Shown one piece after another: positions 3,102-42,342 of a DNA stretch of 64,000 nucleotides; the first letter of the stretch is position 1; every line of letters starts with the position of its first letter. Source of the DNA: Monocercomonoides exilis PA203 (Eukaryota > Protista > Preaxostyla). The notes beneath the pieces are model-generated. The model saw only the letters and a program-made list of their open reading frames with translations, was not told the origin of the DNA and ran no database searches. Made by a program: the position numbers and the translations under genes. The stretch is from contig LSRY02000003.1 in NCBI GenBank assembly GCA_001643675.2, positions 1,798,001 through 1,862,000 of the forward strand, written 5' to 3'.

Positions 3102-3956
3102 TAACTATTTCTAACTTAAATAAAATTTCAATACATAACTTTTAACATGATACAATTTTTAACGAATTTTTCAATAAATAAATGATTTTTGCATTCAAAA
3201 TGAAAAATATCTTCCGTTTTCATTGGAAAAAAAATTATTTGAAATATTCTAATTATTCAGAAAAAATCAAAATTTTTCGAAGTTTTTTATTCCTATGAAA
3301 ACACAAGTAATTTTTCATTTTGAATGCAAAAATTATTAATTCGACGGCGAAAATACCTATTTTTAATAATTTATTGGTATTTAGAGATGGAAATATTTTT
3401 TTTGGTTTTCCACATAAAATTCATTATAATTTCTCTCATATGGATGATTTTTATTAAATCCATGTTTTCTCTCTCAAAATTTTCGGTTTAATAATTCATA
3501 TTAAATTTTAATAAATGAACATTGGAATAGTGCACCTATTATCATACATATTTTTTACATGATTATCATCTCTCACATTGTCTTTTCAAATCATAAGAAT
3601 GCATGTTGCATTTTAACGAAAAATTTCTTTTTGAAGAAACAAAATCAAAGAAAAATAAAAGCTGCGAAAAAAGTTTTGATTTCAAAAATTATCCCCATTT
3701 TCTTAATGTGGACAAGTGGAGAAGATCCTGCTACCAAATGATCATATCCCAAAATTTTTTTAATCGTATTCAAATAATTTTCCAATTTAGCAACTCAGAT
3801 GGCTCAACATCAGCAAGTTACGATCTTTACAAAATAAAGCATTTTTCAATTTCCGAAAAAGTTCACAAGCGAAAAAGAAACATTGGAATGGTTGTTTTCG
3901 TCAGGGAAAATTGATTCTTTTAAAAAATTCCCCGATGACGGTTCAAAGGTTAATGT

Positions 3957-4196
3957 GGGTGATTCTTTTTGAGAAGTCACAAATGTTTTATTTTCAAATA
4001 AATCAAGAATTTCATATTTTGCTAAATATTTTGTTGACAAAAATCAAACTTCACGAAAATGGTATCTATAACTTGATAATGCTATTTCAAACATTCTCGA
4101 GGAGATTTGTGAGTTGAAATAGAAATTTGTGCAAAATATGAAAATTTTGAAATATTTGAAAATTAAACATTTGTGACTTTTCAAAAAGAATCACCT
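3957..4196. mobile_element. 240-bp MITE, copy 1 (GGGTGATTC...GAATCACCC family, 4-bp TSD)
   Basis: Long imperfect TIR gggtgattctttttga(g/a)aagtcacaaatgttt; TSD atgt/atgt; same 240-bp length as the copies at 16580 and 17032. Confidence 0.85.
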
Positions 4197-4207
4197 ATGT
4201 TTTTAAC

Positions 4208-4680
4208 GTGGATGAAATTCCAAGTTATTGTAAATGTTTATTTTGTAAGAAACGATGGTCCATCCAAAAAAACACAGTTTTTGAAGATTACAAGTTGAAA
4301 ATAAATCATATCATGATAATTCTATTACCTTATTGGTTCCATTTAAAGGTTCATCAAACGTCTTTGATGTGTGGAATCGATAGGCATACAGTAACATTTT
4401 AATATTCAGCAATAAGAAGTACATTATCTACCATATTTCTCTGAAAACAGCAACCAATTGTGGGAATTGGAAAGGTTGTTGAAATAAATGAATTATTTTG
4501 GAGATAAAGAAAATATAATTAAGGTTTCAGGATGATTTTATATAAATTTTTGTTAATTTTTTATTAAATTATTAGGGAAACAAAAAAAGTCAATATGGCT
4601 GTTTGGCGCAATCGAAATAAAAAAGACCGATAGAAAATACAGAATGGTTGCTCATTATGTTCAAAATAAAACAAAAAAAA
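4208..4680 (+). pseudogene. Merlin/IS1595-family (ISXO2-like) DDE transposase remnant, truncated at its 3' end by the TIR element
   Basis: Zn-ribbon CKCLFCKKRWSI..NTVFE, then GIDRHTV, and through stops/frameshifts GIGKVVEINE..RKYN.G and WLFGAIE. These match IS1595/Merlin VEIDES..KRKYNRG..WVFG motifs. Confidence 0.7.
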
Positions 4681-4697
4681 GATAAGGTATGTCAGCC

Positions 4698-5703
4698 ATG
4701 GATCCATCTTGATGAGGTCAATCATTATTATCTATTTATGAATATCTGGTAGTTGTTATCATCTTGTATTATAAGTTGAATAGGTAATGATAATGAGATA
4801 GAGATCGAGGGTTATTGCTGATGCTCTTAGGGGTTTCTCATGATAAAATATTCAGTGATGTTCTATAAAGATGGTCTATTGATAGGTGTCATCGAGATAT
4901 ATCCATAGCTGATATACCATATCTCCGGGAAGGAGAATTAGCTAAAAGATTAACTGGAACGGAGATGAAGTCTCCTTAGCAACTTCGTTGCGAAGTGTTC
5001 AAGTAGGTAAATTAATGGTGAAATTGTGTGACAATTGATGTTTTCGTTGATGAAATACATGAGTTGAATGTTGAACGTGTTATCGTAGATGAAATACATG
5101 AGTTGAACATGTGTCGAACGTTGGTGTTATCATTGATGTTATCGTTGGTGAAATCGTAAATAAAAATAATTGATTTTGTTTTTTTGTTTTATCGTAAATG
5201 GGTCGAAAGAAGATATACGCAACTGTGGAGGAAGCGAAAGAGGCTCAACAGAAACAAATTAAACAGTTTCAGGAAAAACGTAAAGAAGAAACTAAGTATT
5301 ACAACGAACATGAAACTGAGAAACAGAAGAAGTTGATTAAGATATTGAGGAGAAAGGTTATCGAAAGTGATGAGTTGTTAGATGAGTTGATGGAAAAAGT
5401 TAGTGGCTATTGCTTGAACAAGCTTGATTGGGATAAATGTGTTAATTGATGAAATATGACTGACTATACACGTTTGTTGTACCGTTGATTGTTAAGAACA
5501 GTTGACACGTTGATGTTGTAGTTAATTGCCAACAACAACATTTTTGCTTGCACCGGGTTGATGGTGCAGATAATGTGGGTGATGCTGTGGCGTGGAAATG
5601 TTGAGTTAAATCTCCGAGCTTATCACCTGCACTGGGTGCACTGGGTGCACCGGGTCAAATATATTCTATAAATAATGTGGGTAAACGGGCAAACGGGGCA
5701 AAT
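4698..5703 (+). repeat. Left terminal inverted repeat (1006 bp)
   Basis: Reverse complement of 8156-9161. Paired coordinates sum to 13859 at both ends and at the ORF (no net indel). Every segment compared by eye was identical except 5695/8164. Confidence 0.95.
5198..5449 (+). CDS. 83-aa basic/coiled-coil protein encoded in left TIR
   Basis: ATG ORF after a T-rich leader. MGRKKIYATVEEAKEAQ... has a basic N-terminus then a charged helix. Identical copy in the right TIR. Confidence 0.65.
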   Translation: MGRKKIYATVEEAKEAQQKQIKQFQEKRKEETKYYNEHETEKQKKLIKILRRKVIESDELLDELMEKVSGYCLNKLDWDKCVN

Positions 5704-5749
5704 GGGAAAAACGTGAAAAAATATAACTGTAACATTTCTGTGATTATTA

Positions 5750-8007
5750 ATTATATTCATTCTCAGATACAGTTTGTTTGAATATCAGTTAACATTCATC
5801 TTTCAATATATAATGCTAGGAACGTGTTCCATTAATTGATTTCTGTTTCCATTCACATTTATCTTTCAGTTGCAATTGGAAGTTCTTGTCTTTAATTACA
5901 ACAGGTTTGCAGAGGAGAACTTCTGTACAATTCATTCCAACACATAGCTCGTCATAATGATTGCATATCCACATTTCCAACGGACTTTTTCTCGCTTCTA
6001 TAATATCTATTTTAGCCTCTGTCATTGGTATTGATCTAACGTTAAATGATGAAAGGTCTTTGTTCATCAAATATGTGAGCAAATTGTCATAAAACTCTGT
6101 CGTAAATGAAGAACATAGCTGTTTGAAATAATCGAAATTGTTCTTGTATTTACCATTACATGCAAGAGCAACATATCTCCTATCACCTGTTTCAATCTTT
6201 ACTGGAAATGCGTGGTTTGTCACATATATGAAATTAGCTACATTCTCAGCGGTTCTTCGAGGTTGATTCTTCTCGTTTATTCTAATAATGTTTTCTGTTA
6301 TTACAGACTTCAACGCATTGAAATTTGCCAGTCTGTCGTCTCCACAATTTTTCAGTTCATTCAAAACAATCAACATTTTGCTTTCAACAACAGAGTTGAA
6401 GTTTCCAGTCAATTCTCCAATTTCTGTGACATTTCTACTGGAATAACCAGCGAATAGTTCAGATATAACATCTGTGAATCTGTTTTTCCCAATACCTTGA
6501 ATACCTTTCAATATCAATGCTGTTTCATTTTTTATTCCAGGGTGTTGAACATTGTTGGCAATCCAGTTAATAACATATTCATATACATCGCTGTTAGAAT
6601 CAGCAATTACCTCACGAACAAAGTCCAGAAACATTGAGATTGTTTCCATATCTACACTTTCACGAAAATTGTACTTGAAACCTTGAAATATCAAGAAAAC
6701 ATTAGCTGCATCTTTTGCAATAAATATAACACCTTGCAATGTTAGTTACGACAAACAAGACAGTAGAATGTCATATGCTGTTGTTGTTTGATGTTCAGTT
6801 TTCCACAGTTTAATTATCTTTAAGTCCCGTGTCATATTAGTGTCTGCAACAAATGTTATTCCCCAATGTTCATCGAATATATTGAAATCCTTTTGCATTT
6901 CATCGCCCCTGTTTCGATAAATCGAAAAATTCTCGACAAATCACTAATAACATCATCAGCGTTTTTGTATTGTTTTGTCTCAGCTTTTCGTCGAATATCA
7001 GTCATGGAAAACGAATCAGACATATCTATTGGTTTAAAAATATTGGTGACGTTTCTCAGTAACGGTGATATCTCGTTTGTGTAATAGTCATTATTCCATA
7101 TTTTGTACATCTTAACTAATACAAATGGCGATGATCTCAAACATCTGTATCGTTGTTTTACCACATAATAGTTATCACGAGCATTAGCTGTCAAATTGTC
7201 ACTGTTTTGTACTCTGTCGTAAGCTAATTCGATATGCTCATTCGGTAATGAATTAATTGCTTGAAACAGTGTGAAAAACGTGATTTCTCTGTTGATTGGC
7301 ATATTTCCCCCATCGTTATGTATAACAAAACACTCCAACCCGTTGACAAAAACATTAGCTAACTCGTCACTGATATTGTCATTGTCGTTATCTAATTTAA
7401 CAATATTATCTATTTCATCAGATGTTTTTATATACAGTTTCAATGAGAGATCGTTCAATATATCATTAACATTTCGTGTAATTGCTAAGTCAAACGAACC
7501 TCTTACAAGCTGATAAACATTTGTCTTTGATCGATGATCCATACGCACTTTAGTGTTTATTAACACTATTTATGGTCGTTTGCCCTCATCCAATGATGCC
7601 ATGATATCTACATCAAATTCATCGCAAGTGTAACATATAATCATTCTGTTGGAGTTGGCGTAAAAGTCATCGGTATTTGCATAAATGTGTAATCCCCCAG
7701 AAGCTGTCTGAACAACAACATCATCTTCGTCCAGTTTGTTTAATATCTTTGATCTAACAGATTGTTTGGCCTCGTCGTCTAACGATTTGTTAATGTCAAT
7801 GTCGATAACAGTTATATTTGACACTTTGTTCACCAATACTGCTCTTCCAGTAACAACAGAGCCACTGCCTCCATCATGCTTTTGATAATTGAATAAATCA
7901 ACAACGTTAGTATCAATTCTTTCATTCAATATTTTTTCTTCCATGCTAATAAGGAGTTGAACCGTTTGGCTGTTTTCACCGATTATTTCGGTTATGCTTT
8001 TGCTCAT
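5750..8007 (-). pseudogene. Fused AEP primase-polymerase (Prim-Pol) and superfamily-3 (D5/DUF5906-like) helicase, disrupted
   Basis: N-terminal VIDID (DxD) and QTASGGLHIY (AEP His motif). C-terminal Walker A GIQGIGKN, Walker B LIVLNE, motif C YVTNH, and DRR Arg finger. ORFs 7570-8016, 6856-7566 and 5816-6739 join via in-frame TAA (7570, 6746), one frameshift near 6900 and a TAG at 5816. Confidence 0.85.
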
Positions 8008-8155
8008 GGTTGCCAATTTTATAGAAATAAAAAAAACAAATTTTTTTTGGAACAGAATTATTTTTGAAAATACAATTTCGGGGAAAGATGATGTTGACGT
8101 TAATGTCTAACATTTACAGAAACAGTTAATTTTCACATAAAATGCACTTTACACA

Positions 8156-9161
8156 ATTTGCCCAGTTTGCCCGTTTACCCACATTATTTATAGAATATAT
8201 TTGACCCGGTGCACCCAGTGCACCCAGTGCAGGTGATAAGCTCGGAGATTTAACTCAACATTTCCACGCCACAGCATCACCCACATTATCTGCACCATCA
8301 ACCCGGTGCAAGCAAAAATGTTGTTGTTGGCAATTAACTACAACATCAACGTGTCAACTGTTCTTAACAATCAACGGTACAACAAACGTGTATAGTCAGT
8401 CATATTTCATCAATTAACACATTTATCCCAATCAAGCTTGTTCAAGCAATAGCCACTAACTTTTTCCATCAACTCATCTAACAACTCATCACTTTCGATA
8501 ACCTTTCTCCTCAATATCTTAATCAACTTCTTCTGTTTCTCAGTTTCATGTTCGTTGTAATACTTAGTTTCTTCTTTACGTTTTTCCTGAAACTGTTTAA
8601 TTTGTTTCTGTTGAGCCTCTTTCGCTTCCTCCACAGTTGCGTATATCTTCTTTCGACCCATTTACGATAAAACAAAAAAACAAAATCAATTATTTTTATT
8701 TACGATTTCACCAACGATAACATCAATGATAACACCAACGTTCGACACATGTTCAACTCATGTATTTCATCTACGATAACACGTTCAACATTCAACTCAT
8801 GTATTTCATCAACGAAAACATCAATTGTCACACAATTTCACCATTAATTTACCTACTTGAACACTTCGCAACGAAGTTGCTAAGGAGACTTCATCTCCGT
8901 TCCAGTTAATCTTTTAGCTAATTCTCCTTCCCGGAGATATGGTATATCAGCTATGGATATATCTCGATGACACCTATCAATAGACCATCTTTATAGAACA
9001 TCACTGAATATTTTATCATGAGAAACCCCTAAGAGCATCAGCAATAACCCTCGATCTCTATCTCATTATCATTACCTATTCAACTTATAATACAAGATGA
9101 TAACAACTACCAGATATTCATAAATAGATAATAATGATTGACCTCATCAAGATGGATCCAT
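8156..9161 (-). repeat. Right terminal inverted repeat (1006 bp)
   Basis: Reverse complement of 4698-5703. Confidence 0.95.
8410..8661 (-). CDS. 83-aa basic/coiled-coil protein encoded in right TIR
   Basis: Translation is identical to 5198-5449. Confidence 0.65.
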   Translation of the reverse strand: MGRKKIYATVEEAKEAQQKQIKQFQEKRKEETKYYNEHETEKQKKLIKILRRKVIESDELLDELMEKVSGYCLNKLDWDKCVN

Positions 9162-9719
9162 AGCGGGTTTACCATATCTCTCTTTTTTTACACAAAGAAC
9201 AAAAAAATTTCTCCACTCATAACTTTATTTCCCCTTCTCAGATTTCAAAATAAATTCGAATTTCATCTCCTTAAACAGGCGTCGTTGAAATCAAAACATA
9301 AAGAATTGCTGCATTTTTTTATTATCAAAAAATGGACACATTTTTATTGTGCTTTTTGATATTGAAAAGTCAATAAAAAGCGCATAATTTTTCAATAGAA
9401 TTCCTGAAGTGAAATATTTTGCCCCATATAGTATTGTTAAATAACAGTTTTTGATATCTGTTTCTTTGTCAACCTTGTGCATATGCTTGTCTTTCACCGC
9501 TTTTCAAGGAAACCTATGAAAAGTTGTAAAATGTTTAATTAACAAAACTGATAATACACAACAAATACCTAACAAATCTCGCACAACACAAGGAATAAAT
9601 AAAACAGATAAATATAGAAAATTATAAATTATTCCAAACCAGTTCAGATTCATTGCATGCTCTTTATTGTTTATTATCAGTTTATTCCTTATAACAAAAA
9701 AAGAGAATTTAACGATTCC

Positions 9720-16497: not shown

Positions 16498-16579
16498 GAA
16501 TTATATTTTTCTTTTTTCGCAAAAAAATTATAAAATGAATTTTCAAATATGAAAATAAAGGTGTTGATCACAAAAAAAT

Positions 16580-16819
16580 GGGTGATTCTTTTTGAAAAGT
16601 CACAAATGTTTAATTTTCAAATAAATCAAAAATTTCATATTTAACTCAAATTTCTGTTTCCACTAACGAATCTTTTTCAGAATGCATGAAATAGCATTAT
16701 CAAATAATGGATTTCATATTTGGTAAGTTTGGGGCATATTAATAGAAATTTGAGTTAAATATAGAATTATTGATTTATTTGATAATTAAACATTTGTGAC
16801 TTTTCAAAAAGAATCACCC
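16580..16819. mobile_element. 240-bp MITE, copy 2
   Basis: gggtgattctttttgaaaagtcacaaatgttt...aaacatttgtgacttttcaaaaagaatcaccc; TSD aaat/aaat. Confidence 0.9.
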
Positions 16820-17031
16820 AAATGTTTAGTCCGTCACCTGTGTCAGTTGTTGCAAAATTTCTTTCTTGTTTCACATGTCAAGTGCAAAAAACAAAAGAAT
16901 CAAGTTTTAATCTGAATTCATTTATTTTTTCACAAAAATAGCCATTTTTGTTTGCTATTCAACGTTGGTCAAATTGATTAACAAGCCAGATTTTGAACTG
17001 AAAATGGATATTTATTTGTTTTTCCTCATTT

Positions 17032-17271
17032 GGGTGATTCTTTTTGAAAAGTCACAAATGTTTAATTTTCAAATATTTCAAAATTTTCATATTTTGCTCA
17101 AATTTTTGTTTCAGCTCACAAATCTCCTTAAGAATATTTGAAATAACATTATCCAGAAATGGATTTTATATTAGTGAAGTTTGGTGTATGTTAACAAAAA
17201 TTTGAGCAAAATGTGAAATTTTTGATTTATTTGTAAATTAAACATTTGTGACTTTTCAAAAAGAATCACCC
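17032..17271. mobile_element. 240-bp MITE, copy 3
   Basis: Same TIRs and length; TSD attt/atat (3/4). Confidence 0.9.
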
Positions 17272-18723
17272 ATATGTTCAAGCAATGATTCAAATTAGGG
17301 TCAACTTTTTAATGGGACTTTTTCCTTTATTGGCACATTTTATTATTTTAGCATGCCAGTCATTCAATAAAGCTTGATGAACCACAACACTAGGGCGAGG
17401 GTGTTAATAAAACAAATACATTAAATTACCGGTTTGTTTTTTAAATATTGTTTATTTTTTGTAGAGATACAGCAATTTTTTATTGATTTTGAAGTGACTT
17501 TTTTCAGCCGAGGAAGCATTTCACAAAAATAAGAAATCCATTTTTTAAAACTACTTGCATTATCCTTTTAATATTCAAAATCTTAAGTTTAACAACTTGT
17601 TTTTTCTTGATTTTTTTCACATTTCAAATTTTTATCAACATGCGAATACAGTTTTTAAAATTTCTTTGTTATTAATATTAAGTGTTAAAAAAAAAAATAT
17701 GATATGAAAAATACTCACTCTGACAAAGAAGTGTGAAAAAGGTTGAACATCATAATTTTCTATATGTATCAAACAGGTGAATGGTCACAACATTGAATGA
17801 TCTGAGATCAAACTTATTCTATTTTGATGTGTTTGATACATATAGAAAATTATGATGTTCAACCTTTTTCACACTTCTTTGTCAGAGTGAGTATTTTTCA
17901 TATCATATTTTTTTTTTTAACACTTAATATTAATAACAAAGAAATTTTAAAAACTGTATTCGCATGTTGATAAAAATTTGAAATGTCATAATTTTTTTGA
18001 AAAGTTCCACGACTTTAATTTTGTCCCACAAAATATCAAAAAAGATCAATAAATAATGATAATTCTGTTCCCATTTTAGTTTTATAAATGTTATTTGTTG
18101 TTATTTATTTTGCTATTTTAAGAAAAACAGATAACAAATTAGTTGAAATTATATAGATTTTTAACTTTTTTTTGTAATACACTCAAGTGAGCTACTGCTT
18201 TTTAGCTATTTGCATCAAATGAGTTTCATGCTTTTATTTCCTCATTTTCATTTTATCTGTTCGCATATTCATCATGAATTTATGGATAATAACTAAATTT
18301 TAAATAATATTTTTGTTGAAAGGTATAGAAAATTATGTTCGCTTGAATTCTGGAATTTTTAATAAAATATTGTCAATTATGAATAATTTATCAAAACAAT
18401 ACTCGTGGCGTTTGAAAAGTATTCAAAAAGGAGTTGACAAGAACCAATAATAAATATAATTCTAGAAAATTGTGGAATGAAGAATTATTTTTCAAAATAA
18501 ATCACCATTTGCTCCAAACTCAAAAAAACAAATTTTTCTCAAATATAGATTCAAACAGTTTGTGCCATTCAAGTATCTTTCATCTCAATATGTGCCTTTC
18601 TCTTCTCCCTTCCATTTTATATTGACACATTATGTAAAAATATCCTGTAATAATCCTCTCAAATAGCATGAAAAAAGTAGGTTTTTTCGGCTGGTCAACC
18701 ATTCTGATACGAATGAAAATGAT

Positions 18724-20103
18724 GTGTTTGTGTCACCTGTGGAGCTGCCGGCAGACGTGGTGGTGTATCTGAAAAAGCTTCTTGTAGCCGGGGCAGCGCA
18801 GCAGTCGTCTCTTCGCTCAGCACCTTCTTCTTCCTCGTCTTCTTCAACAGGAGCAGCACGCCGATCAACTTCGTTATTCCGGAGGCGGAGAAGCGAAGAG
18901 AATAAATCTTCAGAGAATGAGCAGCCATCATCTTCATCAGCGCCTGCGATTGACCCTTCGGATGCGTCGGCTGTGGCTGCGTCATACACGTCGGCAGGAG
19001 CGATGGACGATATCGAGAGGCGGCTGCGGATTGTGGTACCAGAGGCGGCTGGGGTGTATGGGCGGCACATGCCGCTGTCGCTGCAGCTGCTGCTGTCGCC
19101 GCGGGCGCTGCAGACGCTGCGGGGATATGTTGTGGCTCGGCGGGCGGTGCTGTATGGGGGTGTTGTGTGTGCACACGATGTGGCGCTTTCAGCGATGCTT
19201 TCGGTTCCGCTGGTGGCACCGCTTCCTTCGCTTGCAGCGTCGGTGGGCACGAAGTCGGGGAGCAAGCGGATCTTTGCAGCGGCAGATGTGAATGCATTCC
19301 CGTCGATCTACGATCTGTTTGACCCGTCGCTGCTGCCGTCGGCGATAGCGCGGCTGGTGTCGCGATCGCCGCAGTCGAGGCGTGTGGTGGTGAAGCTGGA
19401 CGACGAAGTGATGGGGCGAGGGATTGCAGTGTGTGAAGTGGGGGAGATTGTGGAGAAAGGGTTGGATGCTGCGGGGCTGAGGATGGAGGATGTGGTTCTG
19501 TCACCAGCAGCGATTGCACTGGCTGTGCTGGAGGAGCGGGAAGAAGTAGAGGAAGGAGAAAGGGGATGCAAAGAGGGAGACAAAGAGGGAGAAGAAAAGG
19601 GAGAAGAAGATGGAGGCAAAGATGGAGGGAAAGAGGGAGGTGATGGGAATGAGGAGAAATGTGGGTATCCGACAGCTCACAGAGAGTTTGTGGAGAGAAT
19701 CAAAGAGAACCGGGGGAAGCTGGAAGAAGCGATGGCGCCTTTGATTGTGGAGGCGCTTGGGCTGAGTGGGCTGAGGTTTGTGAAGGCAGAGGCTGAGGTG
19801 GGCGCATACAAGCAGCATTCAGTTGAACCAGAAGTGTGCAGTTCTTCTCCATCCAATGGCATCCAACAGGAGAACAGGAGAGCAGAAGAGGAAGCAACAG
19901 ATGGGTCTTTTGACATAACTTCAGATGGAAGAGAAGAAAATGTGGGGAAAGATGAGGAACAGGTGGAAATGTCTGTGAATGGATTGGGGATGAATGAGGA
20001 GCAAGGAAAAGAGGGTGGTTCGAATGATTTGGAGAAGGAAGAGGAAGAGGAAGAGGATGAAAAGGATGAAGAGGATGAAGATGATGAAAAGGAGAAAGTT
20101 TGA
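18724..20103 (+). CDS. IQCH-like ATP-grasp domain fragment with acidic tail (cargo; may be a pseudogene)
   Basis: GC-rich 459-aa ORF. TKSGSKRIFAAADV..IYD...VVKLDDEVMGRGIA resembles the IQCH-family ATP-grasp region (from recalled motifs). Confidence 0.55.
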   Translation: MFVSPVELPADVVVYLKKLLVAGAAQQSSLRSAPSSSSSSSTGAARRSTSLFRRRRSEENKSSENEQPSSSSAPAIDPSDASAVAASYTSAGAMDDIERRLRIVVPEAAGVYGRHMPLSLQLLLSPRALQTLRGYVVARRAVLYGGVVCAHDVALSAMLSVPLVAPLPSLAASVGTKSGSKRIFAAADVNAFPSIYDLFDPSLLPSAIARLVSRSPQSRRVVVKLDDEVMGRGIAVCEVGEIVEKGLDAAGLRMEDVVLSPAAIALAVLEEREEVEEGERGCKEGDKEGEEKGEEDGGKDGGKEGGDGNEEKCGYPTAHREFVERIKENRGKLEEAMAPLIVEALGLSGLRFVKAEAEVGAYKQHSVEPEVCSSSPSNGIQQENRRAEEEATDGSFDITSDGREENVGKDEEQVEMSVNGLGMNEEQGKEGGSNDLEKEEEEEEDEKDEEDEDDEKEKV

Positions 20104-21486
20104 GGAATAGGTGGAAATATCAGTTGATTATTTGACAATAATAAAGGAAAAAAATTAATCCGATGAAAAAGAAAGGTTAAACAGTCGTTTGATTAATGAG
20201 GAGTGATAAGATGAAGAAGACGAAGAGGAGGAAAATGGAAGGAAAATTGAGTGCAAATAGAAGATCGGAGTGTCGTGGTTGTTCTATTAGGTTGAGAAAT
20301 TACGAGAAGTGTCTTTAACTTAAAAGGCAATCAACAAATGATGCTTGTGATCATTGCAGACGGGCAGACTTTGGATGCGCTGGGAGAGCTGAACATGCCA
20401 CTGACCATAAACTGTGTCAAGATGAAATGAAATGGAAAAAATACAGCTGAGGAGCAAAGCCAAAGAGGAATCTGTCTTTGGAGCATTGCGAGATCCTCAT
20501 GCAGCATGGGACAGATAAGAAGCAGGGATGAAGCAGGCGATTTCCGAAGACTTTGTGGTTAAGTTTTTCGCACATGTTGAGTGAATTGAGCACAAAGCGG
20601 AGAAGAACGAGTTTGTGTGTAGTATCATTATCAGTCAGGATGAGTGGATCCACCTTGCGAATGCGCATTCATTGATGAAGCAGCGACTACTGTTTTGTGG
20701 AGTGACAGCTTCGTTTGATATTGCATGTGGATGATTCAGTGAAAGTGAAGTTCACAACGGAGAAGGGAATTGAAGCTGCACGGCAGAGCAGAGAAGGAGT
20801 AGAAGCAGGTAATGCGAAGGAGATTCTGAGCAATTGTTCAACGATGCTGTTAGGGCATGCGTTTGAAGATGTGCCTGATGGATAGTCTAATGCGGATACT
20901 CAGCTGATATAACTGTGTGAGTGAATGGAGGCAGAGGTGCAGAAGGAGGGAAGGTGGGTTTATTCAACACGTCAGACAAGAGGCTCGGGACAGAAGAGGA
21001 GTTTATTTAGAGAAGACAGTCGAATGCTGTGCATATGAAAAGCGAATACGGCTGTGATGCTTCTTACACCATTTCTAACCGACCACGCTTTCTCAGCGGT
21101 GTTCCGATGGATGCTTCTATGGCATTGAAAATGAAAGCAGAGGATCTTTGTTTCTAATTCTTCTTTTCCTTCTTCTTCCACTTCTTCTTCTTCTTTTTTT
21201 TTTTTTCTGCTGCTGCTGCTTCCACGGCAAGTTCCACTTTTTGCAGAAATGAGGAAAAGACAACACAAGTTGCGAAGTTCCAGCTAGTGGAGCTAACGAT
21301 GGAACGTCGAAAGAATAAATTTCAACGCTTGGCGTTTTTTCTATATGCTCTGAGTGAGCAACGCCGTTTCTTCCTGGTTTATACGCTGTATCTGTTTGGG
21401 TGAAAAGGAGATGAGGCGGATAGGGATGCATATGAGTATATGACGGTTGTTCCATTTGAGTCCGAGCATGCGATAAAGCGAGCTAA

Positions 21487-22445
21487 TTATTTAATTGAAG
21501 CGGCGTTTGCAGAAATGTTAACAGATGTTTGTGTGTGACAGGCTAGTGTGGAGATAATGATTGAGATAATCTGAAAAAAGGGTAATTCTTCGAATTGGAG
21601 CAAGGATACAATAACAGTGCTGTTTGTGAGTGTGAAGGAGGAAGTTGTTGAAAAGAAAGAAGGAGAAGGAGAAGGAGAAATAGAAGAAGAAGATAGATGA
21701 GAAGAAGAGGAAGAAGAAAAAGAAGATGAAAGAAAGAAGATGAGCTTAAATAGAATCATTTCAAAGTCTGCTGTTATCATTGCAGAGCTAAATGATTAGC
21801 TGGCATCGGGGACTATCAAACCACTTTGTTCATCATTTCTTCGAATTTCATGCTTTCGATCAGCAAAGGCCAATTCATCGCTCATCATAATCATTCCACA
21901 CACAACAACTTTCTTTTCTGTTGTTAATCTTGTTAGGGAGTTCTTCATTGTCAAACAAGGAAATCGGACGATTCCACAATGCGAGTGATCGGATGCTTCG
22001 ATATTGCTCAGAAATATTTCTTCTGGAGTGTGAAGGAGAAAGATACACAGAGGAATGACCACACTCGTATTTCCATTGTCATATCCTCGAACTTTCTCAA
22101 GAGAATCCAAAGAGGCTTCCACACATGTGATGTTTTCTGATTTTGCTGTTTCTTCTAGATTGGGTGAAAAGATGAAGATATCGCTTCCCCACTTGGCTGT
22201 GTTTGTTCCAAATGAAGAGGAGATTAGGAATTCTGGTTTTTCATTCAATAATCGAAGAAAAATTCCTCCCTTAAATCCATATGACGCAGAGCAAGAGCAC
22301 CCATCGAAAGATTCACCTTTCACTTTCACTTCGTTTTTATTCCCAACACATAGAATCATCAACACTCAGTTAGCTGATGTTCTGCTTCCACATCCTGTTA
22401 ATGAACAAGTATTGAGATCTTTATCTTATATGCCATTTAAGAAAT
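21487..22445 (-). pseudogene. Fragment of a large surface-protein-like multigene family (cargo)
   Basis: CSCSASYGFKGGIFL, NTAKWGSDIF and DHSHCGIVRFPCLT motifs; premature stops; paralogous to 25040-25830. Confidence 0.55.
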
Positions 22446-25039
22446 AAATGTTAATTATCAACTGCGATCTTTTCAATAAAAATGTATGATTAAATTTTAA
22501 ATAAAAATTAAAAATTTTTTGTTTAAATATAATACTAACCACTAAATTTATCAAATTTTCAAATGCGTTTAATGTGTGTGTTCAATTTTCGCATTTACGT
22601 TAAGTTCAGGCTCATAATGCAAATGAAAAACTCTATTCAAATGAAAATTAGAATTAACATTGAAAATCAAGTTTATCAAAAAATAGAATCAAAACACACC
22701 TTGGACATTTCATTTATAAATAATTGCAAAGAAGTTCAATCAAGTGATACTCTTTTTCATGGAAAAACTGATAAATTTTGATCAAAAATTTTATATATAA
22801 TTTTTTATCAAACAGTATTTTTTCTCATAAAGAAGTTTGTTATGAACCAACAAACATTATTGCAAAACAAGCATTTTTTCATGAGAATAATGGAAACGGA
22901 ATGAAAAATATTTAATGACGATGGGTCAAATTTTTGATCTGATGTCACTTTTCAAAAAAATATAGACAAATGTGAAAAAAATCAAGAAAAAACAAGTTGT
23001 TAAACTTAAGATTTTGAATATTAAAAGGATAATGCAAGTAGTTTTAAAAAATGGATTTCTTATTTTTGTGAAATGCTTCCTCGGCTGAAAAAAGTCACTT
23101 CAAAATCAATAAAAAATTGCTGTATCTCTACAAAAAATAAACAATATTTAAAAAACAAACCGGTAATTTAATGTATTTGTTTTATAAACACCCTCGCCCT
23201 AGTGTTGTGGTTCATCAAGCTTTATTGAATGACTGGCATGCAAAAACAAAAAAAAGTGCCAATAAAGGAAAAAGTCCCATTAAAAAGTTGGGCAAGTTAC
23301 AAGTATATGGACCATCGATAAAAATTTTTTAATATATTTTTAAAGATACAAAATGGAATATTAATTTATTTAAAATAAGTTATTTTTATCGAAAAAGTGT
23401 TTTTAACAACTTTTCATTTTTCATATGATTTATCCCATAACATTTTCTTGTTTTTACAGGTTTGAAAATTTTGTTTATTTTACGAAATAAACTCTCTTCG
23501 AACTTATATGTTGTTATATTATAATTAAAATCGATAATACTTATTATTGCTCAAACCATGGAAGCGAGTATCTGCTCTGCTTGAAAATTGCTCTATTCAG
23601 ATACATCGAGCAGTTTTGGTTAATGACCGAGAAATATGCAACAGTTGCATTTATTCCTTGAGAAATGCAACAGAAAGGAGAGTTGTGAAACCTGATGGCT
23701 TGTTGAAAGGAATGGTTGTTGGTTGTTTCGAAGGAGATTTGGCAGCCAACATTTAATCACGATTTGATGTGGAGTTGTTTGCTTTTTATTTTTGAATATT
23801 ATAGAAAAGCTGAAAGAAAATTTGAAAGAAGAAAAGGAAGAAGAGAAAAGAAAAGTTTTGAAAAAGGAAGCATTTGAAAAAATGGAAGAAGAAGGATACA
23901 AAGATGACGTCACAAGATTTTGTGAATAGTTTAATTTACCAAGTTAAGAATATTACTCAGATTATACATTATTTGAGGATATTTTCGATAATTTTGAAAA
24001 ATATTTTTGAATATGATATGAATTTCAGCTTTGAAACCCAATAATAAGAAGTATTGCAAAATAACAAACCAGTTTTAGAATTCCATTATTATTTTGTAAT
24101 GAAAATTTTAGATTTGAAAGTCCAGAAGTTTTTTATTAAATAAGTTTAATGAATAAAAGATAAATTTTTGTTAAATTGTAATTTTTTCTTTTCGCAACGA
24201 ACGAAGAAAAATTAAACTTGCTTGATTCTTTTCCTGACAATTTTTTTATATTTTTAATTTCAAATAATTTTCTTCTTTTCAAATGTTCATTTTTATTGAA
24301 AATTCTTGGTATTATCACAGTATATACTTTCATCTATTTTGTATATCATTTTTTCTTGTTTTCTCGAGTGAATGTGTGTTCTTCACAAAAAATAATAAAA
24401 AGAAAATATAAAAAGATGAAGTTAATATGGGGCAAAATTTTCTTTTTCCAAATTTTGTTCCACCCGTAATTTCGACAATAATTTCTACAAAAAATTTAAT
24501 TATTCACTGAACAGTTTTAAAAATGGCTAAATTTTTTTGAAAAGTGACATCAGATCAAAAATATGACCCATGGAAGTTAATTTTCAAACACTCCATTTCC
24601 ATTATTCATATAATAATATTGAATTTTCACAGTGATGTTTGTTGGTTCATGACAAACTTCTTTATGAGAAGAAATACTCTTTCACAAAAAATTATATATC
24701 AAATTTTTTGATCAAAATTCAAATATCAGTTTTTCCATGAAAAAGTGTTTCACATAATTTAACCATTTTGCAATTGTTTATTAATGAAATGCGCAAGGTA
24801 TGTTTCGATTTTTATTCCAATTCAACTTGATTTTTAATGTTAATTCAAAATTTCATTTGAATAGCATTTTTCTTTTGCTTTATGAGCCTGAACTCAACAT
24901 GATTGCGAAGATAGAACACACATAAACGATGCAACTGTTAATCGGATAAGTTTAGTGGTTTCCATTTAATGTTAACAAATAAATTTAATTTTAAATAGAT
25001 TATTTAATCATGCTTTTTTTATTGAATAGTTTGCAGTTG

Positions 25040-25830
25040 AGAATCAACATTTGTTTTTTCAATGGCACAATAGACAAAGATCTGAATTCGAGAGAATGTT
25101 CAGGGTGTGGAAGCACAACATTGGCTGAAGGAGGATCGATGATGTTGTGAGTTGGGAATGAAAATGAAGTGAAAGTGAAAGGCGGGACCATTAATGAGTG
25201 TTATTGCTCAGCATTGTATGGACTAGGGGGAGGCATCCTCCTTCGATTGATGGAAGACAATCCCAATTTCCAGATTTCTTCCTCTTTTGGCGCAAACACA
25301 GCCAAGTGGGGAAGTGATATCTTTGTAATCTCTCCCAATTTGGCAGAAACAGCAAAATCGAAAAATATCTTATGTGTTTCAGATTCATTTGATTCTGTTG
25401 ACAAAGTGAGAGGATATGACAATAAAAACAACAGTGTGGTCATTCCTCTGTGTATCTTTCTCCTTCACACTCCAGAAGAAATATTTCTGAGCAATATCGA
25501 AGCATCCGATCACTCGCATTGTGGAATCGTCCGATTTCCTTGTTTGACAATGAAGAACTCCCTAACAAGATTAACAACAGAAAAGAAAGTTGTTGTGTGT
25601 GGAATGATTTTGATGAGCGATGAATTGGCCTTCTCTGATCAAAAGCATGAATCAGAAGAATGACGATCAAAGCGGTTTGACAGTTTCTGATTCGAGTGCA
25701 ACATCCAATTCAGCGATGTTAACAACAAGCGTTGAAACAAAATTATCAAATCTCATCTTCTCTCTTCCATCATCCCTTTTTCTTCGCTCCATTTTCATTC
25801 TCTCATCATCATTAACTTCTCCTTCTTCTC
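25040..25830 (+). pseudogene. Surface-protein-like family fragment (cargo of copy B)
   Basis: ORF 25169-25663 is paralogous to 21796-22365; in-frame TGA at 25147 and a frameshift near 25660. Confidence 0.55.
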
Positions 25831-26095
25831 CTTCTTCTTCTTCTTCTCTTCTTCTTCTTCTTCTTCTTCTCCTCCTCCTCCTTCTTCTTCTTCTTCTTCT
25901 TCTTCTTCTTCTTCTCATTCTTCTTCTTCTTCTTCTTCTTCTTCTTCTCCTTCTTCTCAATCTTCTCAATCTTCTTCTCTTTCCCCTTCTTCTCCTTCCT
26001 CTCTTCCTTCTTCTTCTTCTTCTTCTTCTTCTTCTCCTCCTCCTCCTCCTCCTCCTTCTTCTTCTTCTTCTTCTTCTTCTCCAATTTCTTCTTCA
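25815..26095. repeat. (CTT/CCT)n trinucleotide low-complexity tract
   Basis: Visible tandem TCT/CCT array. Confidence 0.9.
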
Positions 26096-26395
26096 ACTAC
26101 AACCATTCCATTTGATTTGACTAGAGCAATGAACATAGAAAACGAAAATGTTGGACACGATGCTGATAGCATGCTTCTTGACTGTGTGAGTGATTTCGAA
26201 GTGGATGATGAAGATAATGATAATGATGACGAGGATGAAATAGAAGGGATGAGGTGTCAGAAATATTATGAGAGTTTTGACGATGGATCAGAAGCAAATG
26301 AAAGAGAAGAATCTGGAACACAATCATCAACTCATCTTCTGAGAGCACATGAAAGGGAATCTTCATCACGCCCCAATGCTAATTAAACTTCTGTA

Positions 26396-26426
<31 letters not shown>

Positions 26427-29400
26427 CTTCTGCTTCTGCTTCTGCTTCAAATTCAAATTCAAATTCAAATTCAAATTCAAGCAATCCTTCTTCGAGCAAT
26501 CTTTTCCAACTACTTGGCTCAACTGATTCTGCAACTTCTCAAACTGGAAGCCAACCTCAAGCACAGCCTTCCATGCTTCATCCTCCATTTATGCAATTTT
26601 CACCTATCAGCCAGCAGCAGGGGCAGTGGGTTCCGCAGAGCCGTGCTTTTGCAGAAGAGGAATTAGACGCTAGAATCATTTTCATTGAGCTTTTAAAGGA
26701 ATAAATTTTTTGAATTTTTTAATCGTTTAACAATGCATGATATAATTTAGATTATTGACGAGCTTTGCCCATATGAATTTTCTCGTGAAGAAGCAAAACC
26801 GGCTGTGCGTGAGGTGGGAACAGATATGGACACAGTTCTTCCTTGGATCACTAAGAAACATTTTTCGAATCAATAGGATTTTTTTATTTGTTTTTGTTCG
26901 TTCTTGTGGGTGAATTTAACACTTTGTTTTTTTGAATATGCCATGAATTTATTGACTTATTGTGTTTTTACAAATTTGATAAAAATTTGACGCGGAATAT
27001 TTTTACAGTTTATTTTTTAAAATTTTTTATTTATTTCTTTAATGGAGGACTTTGTATTTACAGAAAGTTTATCATCGTTTTTAGAAACAAAGTTTTATAG
27101 AGATAACATTGAATTTGCAAAAGCAAAGTGTGAATTTTCAAATAATTCTTTGGTGATAAAAAAATTATTTGGCAGCCCCAATTATCTTGATGTCATTTGG
27201 AAAAATCTTTCTTGAAACAGAGGCATTGCAGAATTTGTTCATGCTATGATCAGCGTTAACGTTATAATTAAAATTTGCTCCGGATTAAAACAGAATCTGA
27301 AACAGAATTTCTTAATCAACAGCTTTGCCAGAGATGTTATTTAATTCTTTACAGATGTCTGATTGTACTTGGAGCTGAACTGCAATCGCAAAATATTGAA
27401 TTTCGTCAGGTATTGTTTTGCTTGAGCTTCTTTTTTTAATCGTTTACAGCTTTTTCAATTTGTTATTTTCTCGGTTGCCTTTTCGTTCAAACTTATGAAT
27501 GGAAATATGAAATGATTGCCTGTGATGGCTTTAAAAAGAATAAAAAGTCTGAATTTACAGTCAGGCGTCCAAGTCAAAGAGCAAAAGAAGATGAACGAGC
27601 TGGCGAATGGGGAAAGAAAAAGGGGGAGTTGCTGAATCAGATCACAAATAGAATCGGGGGCAATGAAGATACCGATGATTCTTTTGTTCGCTGGAAATTG
27701 TTTGATGTGGTTGTATCAACTCTATTTCAGCTTCTTGAGTGGAAATGGAATACATCGGTTTGTTTCAAGCTATTTTCTTGTATTGATATTGTTCAAAGAA
27801 ATCCCCTTTTTGTGTATTGCTTTTGATTGAAAATGACAAAATATTATTCCACTCGCAAATAGATAGTTGATCATTTCAGTCACAAAGCTCGTCTTCGACT
27901 CATCTTCTACTGAAATATCTGATTAGACAACTTCTTGAATCATCTTCTTTTCACACAGACACCGAGGTTCGGATTATTCGAATGATATTGACATACAACA
28001 GACGAATCATTCATCCTCTTCTTTCGAATCCTTCTTCTTCCTCTTCATCTTCTTCCTCTTCATCTTCTTCCTCTTCATCTTCTTCCTCTTCTTCTTCTTC
28101 TTCTCCTTCTTCTCCTTCGCAAACACAGAAATTGATGCTGCTTTCAATGCATTATGGTCATCAAACATGTTTTTATGCAGTTGGATGATCGAATCTTTAA
28201 CTGGAGAATATTCTTTGATAAAAGGAGAGAAGAAGAAGAAGTAGAAGCAGAAGATAAGTCAATGCGATGGAAAGAAGGGGATGTGTTGGGAATGAGAGGA
28301 GGGAGATTAGCAGAAGGGAGAAGAAGAATAGTTTGAGGATGAGAAGAAGAGGAAGAAGAAGAAGAGGAAGAAGAAGAAGAGGAAGAGGAAACAAATGAAT
28401 GAGAAGAAGAAGAAGAAGAAGAAGAAGAAGGAAAAGAAAAAAAAAAGAAGAATTTGATGGGAAAGAAGCAGTCAGAGAAGAAGAAATAAAAGAAGGAGGA
28501 AGAGAAGAAGAAGAAGAAGAAGATTCAATGGAATTGGAAGAAGAAGAAGAAAGATGAGAAGAAGAAACAAAGTTGTAATCCACATCCTCTGCTGCCATAT
28601 TCAATGCTATGGAAGCATCCATTTGAACAATCGCTGAGAAAGCATGGTCAGTTTGAAATAGCGTACGAAGCATCACTGCCGCATTCCCCTATCGTCTGTT
28701 CAGCATTTGACTGTCTTATCTGAATAAACAACTCTTCGACACCGAGCCTATTGTCTGACGTGTTGAATGACATGACACTTCTCCTTCTGCACCTCTGCCT
28801 CCATTCACTCACCTAGCCAAGTCAGCTGTGTGTCCGCATCAGACGCCACATCAAGCACACTCTCAAACGTATGCACTGACAGCATCGCTGAACAATTGCT
28901 TAGAATCTTTTTCGCATTACCTGCTGCTCCTTCTCTGTTCCGACATACAACCTCAATTTCCTTCTCCGTTGTAAACTTCACTTTCTCCGAGTCATCTGTT
29001 CTCCATCACAACCGATACTGTCCTTCCACAGCACAGTGGCTGCGGCTGCATCACAATGTGTACATTTGCAAGTCGGATCCACTCATCCTGGCAGATAAAG
29101 ATACCACACACATATTCGTTCTCCTCTGCTTTGTGCTCGAACCACTCAACAAGTTCGAAAAACATAACCGCCAAGTCTTCCACACCGACCTGCTTCATCC
29201 CTGCTTCACTCTCTGTCCCATTCAACACGAGGATCTCGCATGGCCCCAGAACCAGATTCCTCTTTGGCTTTGTTCCTCAGCTGTATCTCCACCATTTCAC
29301 CTGCATCTTAGCACGGCTTCATGACAGCTGCATGTTCAGCTCGCCAAGCACATCAAAAGTCTGCCAGTTTTTTATGAGCACACGCATCATTCGCTGATTG

Positions 29401-29677
29401 CCTTTTTGTGTCAGGGCACTGCTCGTCAGCCCTCAACCAGATTGAACAACCACGGCACTCCAATATTCTATCTGCACTCAATTTTTCCTCACTCTTCCTC
29501 CTCAACCTCTTCTTCTTTTTATCACTCCGTATAAATCAAACAACATTTTCCCCTTGCTTCTTCATAGGATTTGTCTTTTTCCTCATTTATTAACAAATCA
29601 TTCGCTCATTTTTTTATAACAGCTTCACAGAAATAATCATTTCAATAAAACTTTTCGTTGCAGAAATAATCAAATAC

Positions 29678-30540
29678 TCATCTGCTTCTCCTGCTGAATC
29701 GTTCTCCTTCCTCCACTTGTTTTCGCTCCTCAAGCTCCAACAGTGCAATCGCTGCTGGTGACAGAACCACATCCTCCATCCTCAGCCCCGCTGCCGACAG
29801 CCCCTTCTCCACAATCTCCCCCACTTCACACACTGCAATCCCTCGCCCCATCACTTCGTCGTCCAGCGTCACTCACACGCCTCGACTGCAGCTATATCCA
29901 ACGGCAGCAGCGACGGGTCAAACAGATCGTAGATCGACGGGAACGCATTCACATTTGCTGCTGCAAAGATCCGCTTGCTCCCCGACTTCGTTCCTACTAA
30001 TGCTGCAAGCGACGGAAGCGGCGTCACCAGCGCAACAGAAAGCATCTCCGAAAGTTCCATACCGTAAGCACACACAACGTCTCCGTACAAACAGCACTGC
30101 ACACCGCGCCTCAGCATAACCTCGTGGAGCTCGTTGTAACCGCAGTGATGGTTTCTTGTGATTTGCATACACACCAGTTGCCTCTGGCATCACAATCCAC
30201 AGACGCCTCTCGATATCGTCCGTCACTGCTGCAGATGTGAATAACACCGTCACAGCCGACGTATCCGAATGGTCAATCGCAGGCGCTGCTGCTGATGGTG
30301 ATGACTGCCCGACCCATTCCGCCTTCATCTATTCGTTTCCCTGCCATTGGAATGGCGGATGTTACCTACATGCTGTTCAAGTTGAAGATGGCGAAGAAGA
30401 CGAAAGTGCTGAGAGAAGAGACGACTGCTGCGCTGCCCCGGCCACAAGGAGCTTGATGAGATATATCCCATCACGTCAGCCAGAATTTTTACCAGAAGCA
30501 CTTACAGCATCCACATTCGTATCATAATGATGGATGAGTC
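29678..30540 (-). pseudogene. IQCH-like ATP-grasp fragment, frameshifted (cargo of copy B)
   Basis: GTKSGSKRIFAAANVNAFPSIYDLFDPSLLP and LDDEVMGRGIAVCEVGEIVEKG are split over several frames. Confidence 0.7.
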
Positions 30541-31610
30541 GAGAAAACCAGATTTTATCGTACAATTTGAAAAGATTAAAGCAGTAAACCTTTCGTGATG
30601 CGTTTATTCAAAATGGAATGGAGAAGAAAAAGGCACATAACGAGATGAAAACTATTTGTTTGATACTATCTTTTTAAATCCATATATGAGATCAAATTGT
30701 TATTTAAAGTTTGCAACAAATGGAGATTTATTTTGAAAAATTAAATCTCATTCCACAATTTTCTTAAATAACATTAATAATTGCTTTATGTCACCTCCTT
30801 TTTGATATTATTCTAACGCAACGAGTATTGTTTTGATGAATTTTTCCTGTTTGAAAATTTCTTAAAAAAATTTGATAATTCATGCAAATCAAATATTATT
30901 TGTCTTTCAATGAAAAAAAAATAATGAAAGCTTTGTTAATATCCATAATTTCAGAATGAACATTCAAACAGATGAGATGAAAATGAAGAAATAAAAACAT
31001 TTAATTCATTTTATTCAAATAGCTGGAATGCATTGTTGACATAAGTGTATCACAAAATAAAGTTAAAAATCTATATAATTTCAACAAATATGAATCCTAT
31101 TTTTCAATAAAAAGCGAAATAAATAACAATAAATAACATTTTTCAAACAAAAATGGGAACGGAATTATCATTATTTATTGATCTTTTTTGATATTTTGTG
31201 GGACAAAATTAAAGTCGAGGAACTTTTCAAAAAAATTTTGCCAAATATTTATTTTTTTTATAAAAAAAAACGACAACAAACATTTATTTACCTGGGAAAC
31301 TGATTCAGGACCCAAGTCCTTCAAGTTTCTCAATTATAAACAAAGAATTAAGAAACAAGATGGAATCAGTCTTGTCCTCTACCGAAAGTTATTCTGTTTC
31401 ATCGGATAAGCATAGACAAATATTTGTTATTTCTAAGTTTATTAAACGTTTATTTTTTATTAATTAATTAGTTAGTTAAATTAAAAAAAAATAAAAATAT
31501 AAATTTTAAATTTAATAAAATTGAAATTAAATACAAAATAATTTTACAGTTTGTTTATTTCAAAAATAACTATCAATCACTTTCAATAGATGAATTGTGA
31601 AATAAAAAAA

Positions 31611-37463: not shown

Positions 37464-38378
37464 ATGATGTCTGCTTCACAATTCCCTCCGATTGTTGGAC
37501 TTACGCCGTCGGCTGATTCTGCAATGCAGCACAGTGGGGCGCAAAGCCAACCAGGGACCTTGTCACAACCTAACATCTTTTCTTCCTCTTCAATTTTTTC
37601 ACCTTCTTCATCGGAAGGTTTAGCACAGGAGTTGACCCCTTCAGCTGACAGAAAGGAGAATGATGATTTCTTAGACATATCACAACTTATTTGTCAGGAG
37701 TTTGAGGACATTTTCGGACAAACGCCGAATATTTCAATTTTTGATCTAAGGATTTCCCCAAGATCCGTTCAAGTTGTTGTTGAGGAGTATAAGACACAGG
37801 ATTTTAGCCCATTGTTATCTTAAGAACCACCCGCTTCCAAGAGAACAAAGGACTGGATTAACGATGCGTTAGATCAAACAGGTATTCATGTTGATACCTT
37901 CTAAAACCTAGCACTTCAAGCATTGCTCTTCGGACTGACTCATGAATTCACTTCAAAGGAAGAAACAAAATGAAGACTGGCTGATATTTTGATTATGATC
38001 ACCAAGGCTCTTCAAGAGGTATGAACGGTTCGAATTCGAGGCAGGCTTGGTTTCAGTGCTTCCACAGCGATGAGCACAGACGCTTCTACAGGAATTCTCA
38101 CAGAGAGACAGGAACTGATTCTCAAAGAAACAAGGCTGGAAGCCAAGCTAGAGAGAGGATTCCAGAGACCAGCACTTCCTATAACACGTGTTCAGGCTCC
38201 TGTTAAAGAACAACCAGGAACACTTCAAAGAAGATTTAGTTATCCCATTTCTCACACAAATACACGGTTTTTTCGGAGATACCCTAGGTCCTCAGCCCCC
38301 ACAAGAAGGCATCAATTCGGAAGAAGGAGGAACCAGAGCAGTTGGAGCAGGAGACCAGGGGTGCGTCAACAATTTTAG
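37464..38378 (+). pseudogene. DIRS gag-like ORF1 with four in-frame stops
   Basis: One reading frame from ATG 37464 to 38378, with TAA 37821, TAA 37902, TGA 37971 and TGA 38022. It lies directly upstream of and overlaps RT. Confidence 0.65.
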
Positions 38379-41743: not shown

Positions 41744-42342
41744 GCCCACCACCGTTTTCACTCCCACCCTTTGAAGTTCTGTTTTCAAAACTGTTAATGT
41801 TTTTGTTGTTCCTTCTCTTTGCGCTTTTTGGTTTTGTAAGCGCAAAGCGGTTTTTTATCCAATTCACCAAAACACACAAATGGGCGACTGATTCATAGAT
41901 TGTGGCGTCTCTCAAAAAGAGAAGGAATTGATTCTCCACTTTCTTTTTTAATTAAAATCTATATTTCAAAAAAAGAAAGATAGAAAGGAAAGATAGAAAA
42001 GTGAATAAAAACAACTGTTTCTTCAAACATTTATTTCAATATTCATCATTCACATAATATCTTAAATGTCTCAAAAGTTATGGATGAAAGAACAAGTTTC
42101 ATGATTTACTCCCATTAATTTCATTATTTCAAACACAAACAGCATGACAGCTCTTCCCTCATCTTTATTTGGAACAATATTCTTTGGGTTGCCGGAACAA
42201 AGCAACGAAATAAGAGATTTGAGGTTTGTTGCAAGTCATTCCAATGGAAATTTTGTGAAAAATTTTTTGTAGACAAACTATTCCCCAAAATATAACTGTA
42301 AGTCATGAAGACTGTTCAACAAGTTATATCGAAGCAAGAGTA

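Follow-up and report, generated by a model that had tools for sequence, protein, structure and literature searches.

A decayed 4.5-kb element with kilobase inverted repeats around a primase-helicase gene in Monocercomonoides exilis, probably derived from a Maverick

Mavericks, or Polintons, are elements of 10-28 kb that carry genes for a protein-primed type B DNA polymerase (pPolB), an rve integrase, an ATPase, and capsid proteins. Excerpts of PMC8097293 give their end motifs as 5'-(AG)3//(CT)3-3' or (AGT)2 and state that integration leaves a 6-bp target-site duplication (TSD). For Trichomonas vaginalis, excerpts of PMC12289875 report Maverick terminal inverted repeats (TIRs) of up to 900 bp and, for TvMav3, DUF4108 in 58.8% and a 'Poxvirus D5 protein' in 8.6%; an excerpt of PMC10120064 reports six major capsid protein (MCP) loci in the assembly of the oxymonad Monocercomonoides exilis. 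Here we describe an element of ~4.5 kb at positions 4676..9183 (unstranded; end positions uncertain by 2-4 bp) of a 64,000-nucleotide stretch of M. exilis PA203, contig LSRY02000003.1, positions 1,798,001 to 1,862,000 of the forward strand (the whole stretch is called the window below). The extent of 4679..9180 given in an earlier note on this DNA was essentially right, and we correct the ends to ~4676-4678 and ~9181-9183. In our assessment the element is probably an internally deleted, non-autonomous Maverick derivative that spread in an oxymonad with the aid of helpers, is now dead, and has had its arms homogenized by conversion.

Like TvMav3 and other metamonad Mavericks, the element has long TIRs, an apparent AG...CT motif at its right end alone, a primase-helicase of the same clade, and a small basic open reading frame (ORF) that also occurs on Maverick-like contigs. 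Unlike Mavericks, it is only 4.5 kb long and has no pPolB, rve integrase, ATPase, capsid gene, or TSD; it also contains a gene inside each 1006-bp arm, whereas the TIRs of TvMav3 measure 100-130 bp. Polinton-like viruses (PLVs) can have the same fusion of replication domains, an archaeo-eukaryotic primase (AEP) joined to a superfamily 3 (SF3) helicase, and a TIR-bounded endogenous form (excerpts of PMC11161782), but the element lacks their capsid, ATPase, and tyrosine recombinase. Mimivirus transpovirons are likewise small, of linear type, and capsid-less, with a polymerase-helicase, a few further genes, and PLV-like ancestry. However, they combine pPolB with a superfamily 1 helicase in a set of 6-8 genes (excerpts of PMC3671162 and PMC11161782) and are found with giant viruses, whereas the element combines AEP with SF3 and is known here as chromosomal DNA alone. 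The closest solved folds for its primase-polymerase (Prim-Pol) and helicase are those of phage NrS-1 polymerase and plasmid pRN1 ORF904, which differ in their prokaryotic phage or circular-plasmid context and share 14-20% identity. The element fails as an autonomous Maverick and as a transpoviron and likely works like a non-autonomous Maverick. No paper listed in our literature searches describes this minimal form in its title or in the opening of its abstract, a scope that leaves room for a prior description in Repbase or in the founding papers on Polintons, Mavericks, and the T. vaginalis genome.

Comparison of the window with its own reverse complement bears out the ~1-kb inverted repeats of the earlier note. 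The left arm (4698..5703, + strand) and right arm (8156..9161, - strand) are 1006 bp long with a single mismatch at 5695, and 997 bp match perfectly; the 2452 bp of unique DNA between them leaves no space for a pPolB gene. Pairing continues with gaps in identity into the outer tips, where 4678-4697 and 9162-9181 differ at 7 of 20 positions. At 9178-9183 the right tip (9162..9183, - strand) terminates in CTCTCT, the Maverick end motif, for which the chance expectation is ~0.4% over 9 positions, and the last two of these bases could also come from the flanking host repeat. The left tip (4676..4697, + strand) is eroded, with AAAAAG in place of AGAGAG, and differs from the right tip at 8 of 22 positions. 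Each end carries a 249-bp unit (4678..4926, + strand; mirror unit 8933..9181, - strand) at whose border the terminal motif recurs in inverted orientation (25-26 of 32 positions match, compared with at best 21 among 300 shuffles), so that the unit is capable of folding back. The 10-bp palindrome ATGGATCCAT (4698..4707, unstranded) lies at the border of perfect arm identity, and this sequence and its mirror at 9152-9161 are the sole 10-bp palindromes within the element. A hairpin telomere at this palindrome was considered and set aside, as no fold-back joint at the right end was present among the contigs listed, a negative that contigs alone cannot make final.

No TSD of 2-12 bp was found at six candidate end pairs or at 4676/9183. 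The right flank (9182..9303, unstranded) is a high-copy host repeat interrupted by the right end of the element, and its continuation is not present on the left side (5 of 18 positions match), a discordance that may reflect loss of a TSD after insertion. The ORF list, Pfam, and tblastn revealed no PolB, rve integrase, packaging ATPase, or capsid gene in the element, and in tblastn with 73 ORFs from 11 Maverick-like loci, every match to the window fell within the central gene. The search thus gave no sign of a larger Maverick in the window in which the element could be nested. The absence of integrase, transposase, and TSD that the earlier note asserted holds for the element by ORFs, tblastn, and all seven end pairs.

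The central gene (5747..8007, - strand; ATG at 8007, natural stop at 5747-5749) is a pseudogene. It had been presented as a lone gene of ~750 codons, and 750 codons can indeed be read through, across four stops and one frameshift: TAA at 7570-7572, a frameshift near 6900, TAA at 6746-6748, TAG at 5816-5818, and TAA at 5789-5791. Because the gene is dead, the window copy is unable to replicate itself. The VIDID, TASGGLHIY, GIQGIGKN, LNE, and TNH motifs were all found in the read-through protein. Its AEP Prim-Pol domain (7426..7935, - strand; residues ~25-194) conserves Asp69, Asp71, His107, and Asp134, and its SF3 helicase core (6176..6511, - strand) matches Pfam DUF5906 (E = 1.2e-19) with Walker A at 6482-6505. 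For a structure model of the N-terminal 322 residues (pLDDT 89), the first 13 Foldseek matches were pRN1, NrS-1, and CAPP Prim-Pol domains, and a wide structure search placed 3m1m on top (Z 9.8, rmsd 3.4, 148 residues aligned); a model of the homologue P0003 matched the C-terminal helicase region of NrS-1 (Z 27.5, rmsd 4.1, 366 aligned). Among 98 homologues, the catalytic AEP residues Asp69, Asp71, His107, and Asp134 are retained in 88, 91, 87, and 92, respectively; for the arginine finger and the two Walker motifs, A and B, the counts are 96-98. As modeled, the protein is a Prim-Pol of the pRN1/NrS-1 type, with the DxD, H, and D residues of the AEP fold, fused to an SF3 helicase with Walker A, Walker B, and motif C, in agreement with the earlier assignment. 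Pfam and PHROGs neither detected the AEP domain nor supplied a name for the small ORF in the arms.

An alternative code in which TAA and TAG specify glutamine, as in Streblomastix, was rejected as an account of the stops. The residues that prevail among homologues where the four stops fall are Leu, Lys, Trp, and Lys, sibling copies carry sense codons at two of them, and an 871-residue ORF elsewhere in the window writes its 34 glutamines solely as CAA or CAG and stops at TAA. Three SF3 helicases of the same family (L110, L082, L094) are joined to another N-terminal domain with a YVHLYFDFD motif, which suggests an exchange of primase domains. Other relatives (L107, L079-L081, L083) are apparently helicase-only, and M. 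exilis MONOS_9167 (P0110) looks chimeric, with a divergent N-terminus and a last 100 residues that are 74% identical to the window protein.

Perfect arms flanking a decayed gene, in an element spanned whole by none of the contigs listed, could in principle be produced by a fold-back chimera or by polishing that merged two repeats. We regard such an assembly artefact, which the earlier note had named as a way to be wrong, as hardly credible. The evidence comes from Logan contigs of four public runs, all of one sample and perhaps the assembly's own source, each of which contains a share of 0.56-0.62 of the element's words. These read-derived contigs include both outer junctions, the inner junctions, and two of the stops, and they confirm the junctions. 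They are identical to the window over 4348-4727, 5418-5672, and 5644-5884, match 9132-9330 without substitutions and 9030-9330 with a single gap but no substitution, and show no differences over 9030-9210. Two of the runs also contain a unitig, free of differences and at ~2x single-contig depth, that terminates exactly at 9161, as predicted by two identical arms. No RNA run was among those listed as containing the element's words.

Each arm holds an inward-pointing ORF of 83 amino acids (left copy 5198..5449, + strand; right copy 8410..8661, - strand), and the two copies are identical, as the earlier note had it. The encoded protein is basic and helical, has a GRK..Y..EEA..Q motif, and shares 88% identity with MONOS_17995 of M. 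exilis; its sequence would suit a DNA- or end-binding protein.

Multiple observations connect the element to Mavericks and run counter to the claim of the earlier note that it fits none of the classes considered there: relatives of the central gene and of the small ORF alike lie on Maverick/Polinton-like contigs from gut samples, and the right end reads (CT)3. First, a 9.4-kb contig (L086) in a bacterial metagenome-assembled genome (MAG) from sheep colon (G001), where it is probably foreign DNA, encodes a primase-helicase directly downstream of DUF4108, together with an A32-like ATPase and a pPolB whose 98% homologue carries PF03175. This primase-helicase is of the full-length type, with the same N-terminus and 52% identity to the window read-through over 647 residues, and no arm separates it from the Maverick genes. 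Second, a quick maximum-likelihood tree of 51 selected rows unites the L086 protein and P0005 of T. vaginalis (57% identical to the window protein) with that of the window in one clade of 23 rows with SH-aLRT 88; the outer branches also hold Maverick-context proteins, and a FastTree of 99 rows shows the same picture. More distant relatives (L080, L081, L107, L110) adjoin ATPase, HNH, DUF4108, or pPolB genes. Third, a profile of the small ORF had 6 matches in a second MAG (G003, which also has 8 helicase matches), all on one set of mutually similar Maverick-like contigs with pPolB, rve, A32 ATPase, or KilA-N, compared with 0 matches among 13,119 control ORFs from 78 viral loci. Profile-profile comparison gave a probability of 95% over 48 columns. 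Finally, on two of these loci (L107 and L111) the small ORF converges on the 3' end of the SF3 helicase gene, which is the arrangement in the window.

Maverick-like contigs (pPolB, rve, A32 ATPase, KilA-N, HNH) or primase-helicase relatives were seen in three prokaryotic MAGs (L107-L112 and L101 in G003; L086 in G001; L091 and L093 in G002), where they are probably mis-binned DNA of gut protists or of their viruses. A 535-residue ORF of L108 was considered as a capsid protein, and this identity was not shown. In one short contig of G003 (L113:1-1581, contig C92), a lone primase-helicase relative follows a small ORF amid complex inverted and direct repeats, possibly a second arrangement of the mini type.

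The element belongs to a multi-copy family, with many sibling contigs that are 85-95% alike in the same sample. Siblings are unbroken at three of the five break sites (7571, 6900, and 6748), and none of them was seen whole. Their ends align as far as 9181 in three of the listed contigs or 9185 in two. Two sibling contigs run past the terminus into different flanking DNA, for 171 and 308 nucleotides, and therefore the copies are dispersed at different loci; the identity of these sibling copies is ~85-90%. In three of the four runs the arm adjoins the gene start in other copies too (joint 5706/8144, opposite strands). In some siblings a 250-270-bp segment on the inner side of the arm (5444-5711) is tandemly repeated, with joints from 5694 to 5444 and from 5711 to 5444.

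Summed depths in the four runs, which are not copy numbers, gave ratios of 9-22 for the gene relative to a single contig, 1.3-1.8 for the inner arm relative to the gene, and 3-13 for the outer 700 bp of the arm relative to the gene. These depths suggest several mini elements plus a larger set of elements that have the outer arm and the small ORF in common. The excess of outer arm could also be expected of a composite cut-and-paste element, in which the 249-bp units are a miniature inverted-repeat transposable element (MITE) of a host DDE transposase and two of them, inverted, carried a captured Maverick fragment as cargo; every end unit does possess its own inverted termini, and the window also contains a DDE_Tnp_4 gene. 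We judge this improbable, in that the arm reaches 780 bp past the unit and holds a Maverick-like ORF, the high-depth section takes in the 83-residue ORF beyond the 249-bp unit and not the unit alone, no TSD was found at the tested end pairs, and the right-end motif would fit a Maverick.

A search with the helicase part, restricted to proteins of 542-2000 residues, returned 114 homologues. The closest (58-68% identity) are encoded on contigs from ENA, Logan, and JGI or belong to Histomonas or to T. vaginalis, the latter with a cluster of 198 sequences; proteins of M. exilis and Streblomastix are more distant. We surveyed contig extents for the 78 of these 114 proteins with at least 715 residues, leaving out named-genome, short, and distant rows and one NCBI row. 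Among Logan contigs at 58% identity or more, 13 of 16 reach 350 bp or less past the gene, where the window predicts 251, and more than 2.5 kb of extra sequence accompanies 5 of 60 close homologues versus 8 of 18 distant ones; all three pPolB controls have more than 2.9 kb of extra sequence. Such short extents indicate that the gene is usually bounded by repeats, a property that fits mini elements and fits equally well an optional Maverick cassette, to which the 8.6% presence in TvMav3 points. The homologue P0044, on a 2.8-kb contig, shares a 90% cluster with the Maverick-embedded gene of L086, and a short contig is therefore no proof of a mini element.

These extents bear on a different account, in which the family is a self-replicating satellite or linear plasmid under selection, transpoviron-like with AEP-SF3, that borrows Maverick capsids or integrase and is sometimes captured in a chromosome. 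The arm beside the gene start in other copies, the summed inner-arm depth of 1.3-1.8 relative to the gene, the rarity of long extra sequence around close homologues, the conservation of the AEP catalytic residues, and the ability of the end unit to fold back all speak for it, as does the origin of transpovirons from PLVs through loss of the structural module (excerpts of PMC11161782). Set against these points, an optional cassette in multi-copy Mavericks would break contigs at the same positions, P0044 with its short contig clusters with the Maverick-embedded gene of L086, and the pPolB control has only three members. Moreover, sibling ends pass into other flanking DNA with no fold-back joint at the right terminus among the contigs listed, and the proteins of 542-2000 residues include no intact member of the family at more than 68% identity. 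We consider this account doubtful for the family; the earlier note's captured self-priming plasmid or satellite does not describe the dead window copy and is possible for intact relatives. A broader proposal, that gut metamonads host widespread, undescribed 4.5-kb Prim-Pol/SF3 satellites without capsid or integrase that parasitize Mavericks for integration and packaging, with the window holding a fossil copy, is likewise tentative and rather unlikely. If intact relatives did replicate themselves, they would provide a minimal eukaryotic replicon amenable to testing. They would also represent a second route from a Polinton-type virus to a non-viral replicon, in addition to the one taken by transpovirons and cytoplasmic linear plasmids. 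Among IMG/VR sequences, 78 loci matched, all as generic helicases at 21-32% identity, with 0 instances of the N-terminal pattern and no N-terminal alignment; 15 matches to plasmid records were all below 60%, and none spanned 80% of the query.

The age of the insertion was estimated from the gene. Its four stops indicate decay of ~3-4% per site (95% range 0.9-9.6%), and 216 conserved columns give 3.8%, with 24 changes where 58 close homologues average 4.9. Independent decay of the arms predicts 17-190 differences, and 0 were observed in 997 bp; with the gene ~4% decayed, we infer arm-to-arm conversion. A recent insertion is disfavored because the tips differ, there is no TSD, and the repeat interrupted on the right is not resumed at the left. 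The history that would fit best is an old insertion followed by deletion or inter-copy recombination, plus arm-to-arm conversion. Perfect arms around a decayed gene would make the locus a clean example of such homogenization.

Derivation by internal deletion could have proceeded as follows. A class-3-like Maverick would have lost pPolB, capsid, ATPase, and integrase genes while one end stayed in place together with the small ORF and the primase-helicase next to it. The end segment would have come to form a 1-kb arm on each side, either because the parent already had a long TIR or because one end was copied back. Both copy-back genomes and conversion between the arms of palindromes are familiar phenomena. 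Full-length elements may have supplied helper enzymes, with integrase acting in trans, that recognized the AG...CT ends and copied and inserted the derivative at several loci; an intact Prim-Pol/SF3 protein could prime, copy, and unwind the excised linear DNA. The window copy would then be old (~4% decay) and dead, its arm identity restored later by gene conversion between the arms, and deletion or recombination at one end could have eliminated any TSD. The earlier note had named an internal deletion of a larger Polinton as the finding that would overturn its proposal, and this is partly what we see at the level of the family, with no parent carrying these exact arms.

Several points weigh against derivation from a Maverick. 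The left terminus reads AAAAAG in place of (AG)3, the alignment of three listed sibling contigs ends at 9181, after (CT)2, and the 6-bp TSD expected of Maverick integration was not found at the tested end pairs. Arm DNA gave only short, chance-level matches in G001-G003, with no parent having these arms. The SH-aLRT of 88 lies below 95, P0005 is at most a candidate for the TvMav3 'Poxvirus D5 protein', and the homology of the small ORF is weak, amounting to ~45 residues of basic helix. In addition, retention of the replication gene alone in several copies exceeds the needs of passive deletion, and the tight contig ends of relatives suggest that the minimal form may be common. A Maverick origin nevertheless remains the account that we favor, and it would make the element a reduced Maverick form that retains a primase-helicase without pPolB or integrase. 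The M. exilis assembly is 35% unclassified, according to an excerpt of PMC8767320, and the element would give a name and an origin to part of this unclassified repeat load.

The window contains other repeats and mobile-element remnants. A palindromic, MITE-like 250-bp repeat occurs in three copies (3953-4204 and 16572-17278) at very high summed run depth. Positions 17984-31243 form a large nested inverted duplication that includes an IQCH-like ATP-grasp fragment; its several arm pairs (17984-19560/29702-31243, 20127-21208/28501-29601, and 21653-22968/24524-25853) are 77-79% identical. Nearby are a 323-bp inverted pair at 98% identity (17302-17624/22968-23290) and a 162-bp hairpin (17614-17991, 99% identity) around a 54-bp spacer. 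A broken reverse-transcriptase element at 38288-41427 (RVT_1, E = 1.5e-29), with overlapping downstream ORFs that resemble RNase H and a tyrosine recombinase, resembles a DIRS-type retroelement. The DDE_Tnp_4 transposase identified by Pfam (42259-44396) is in two halves with an insertion between them. The open 871-residue ORF mentioned above (49801-52416, - strand), which has no Pfam match and ends in TAA, resembles a hAT-type transposase.

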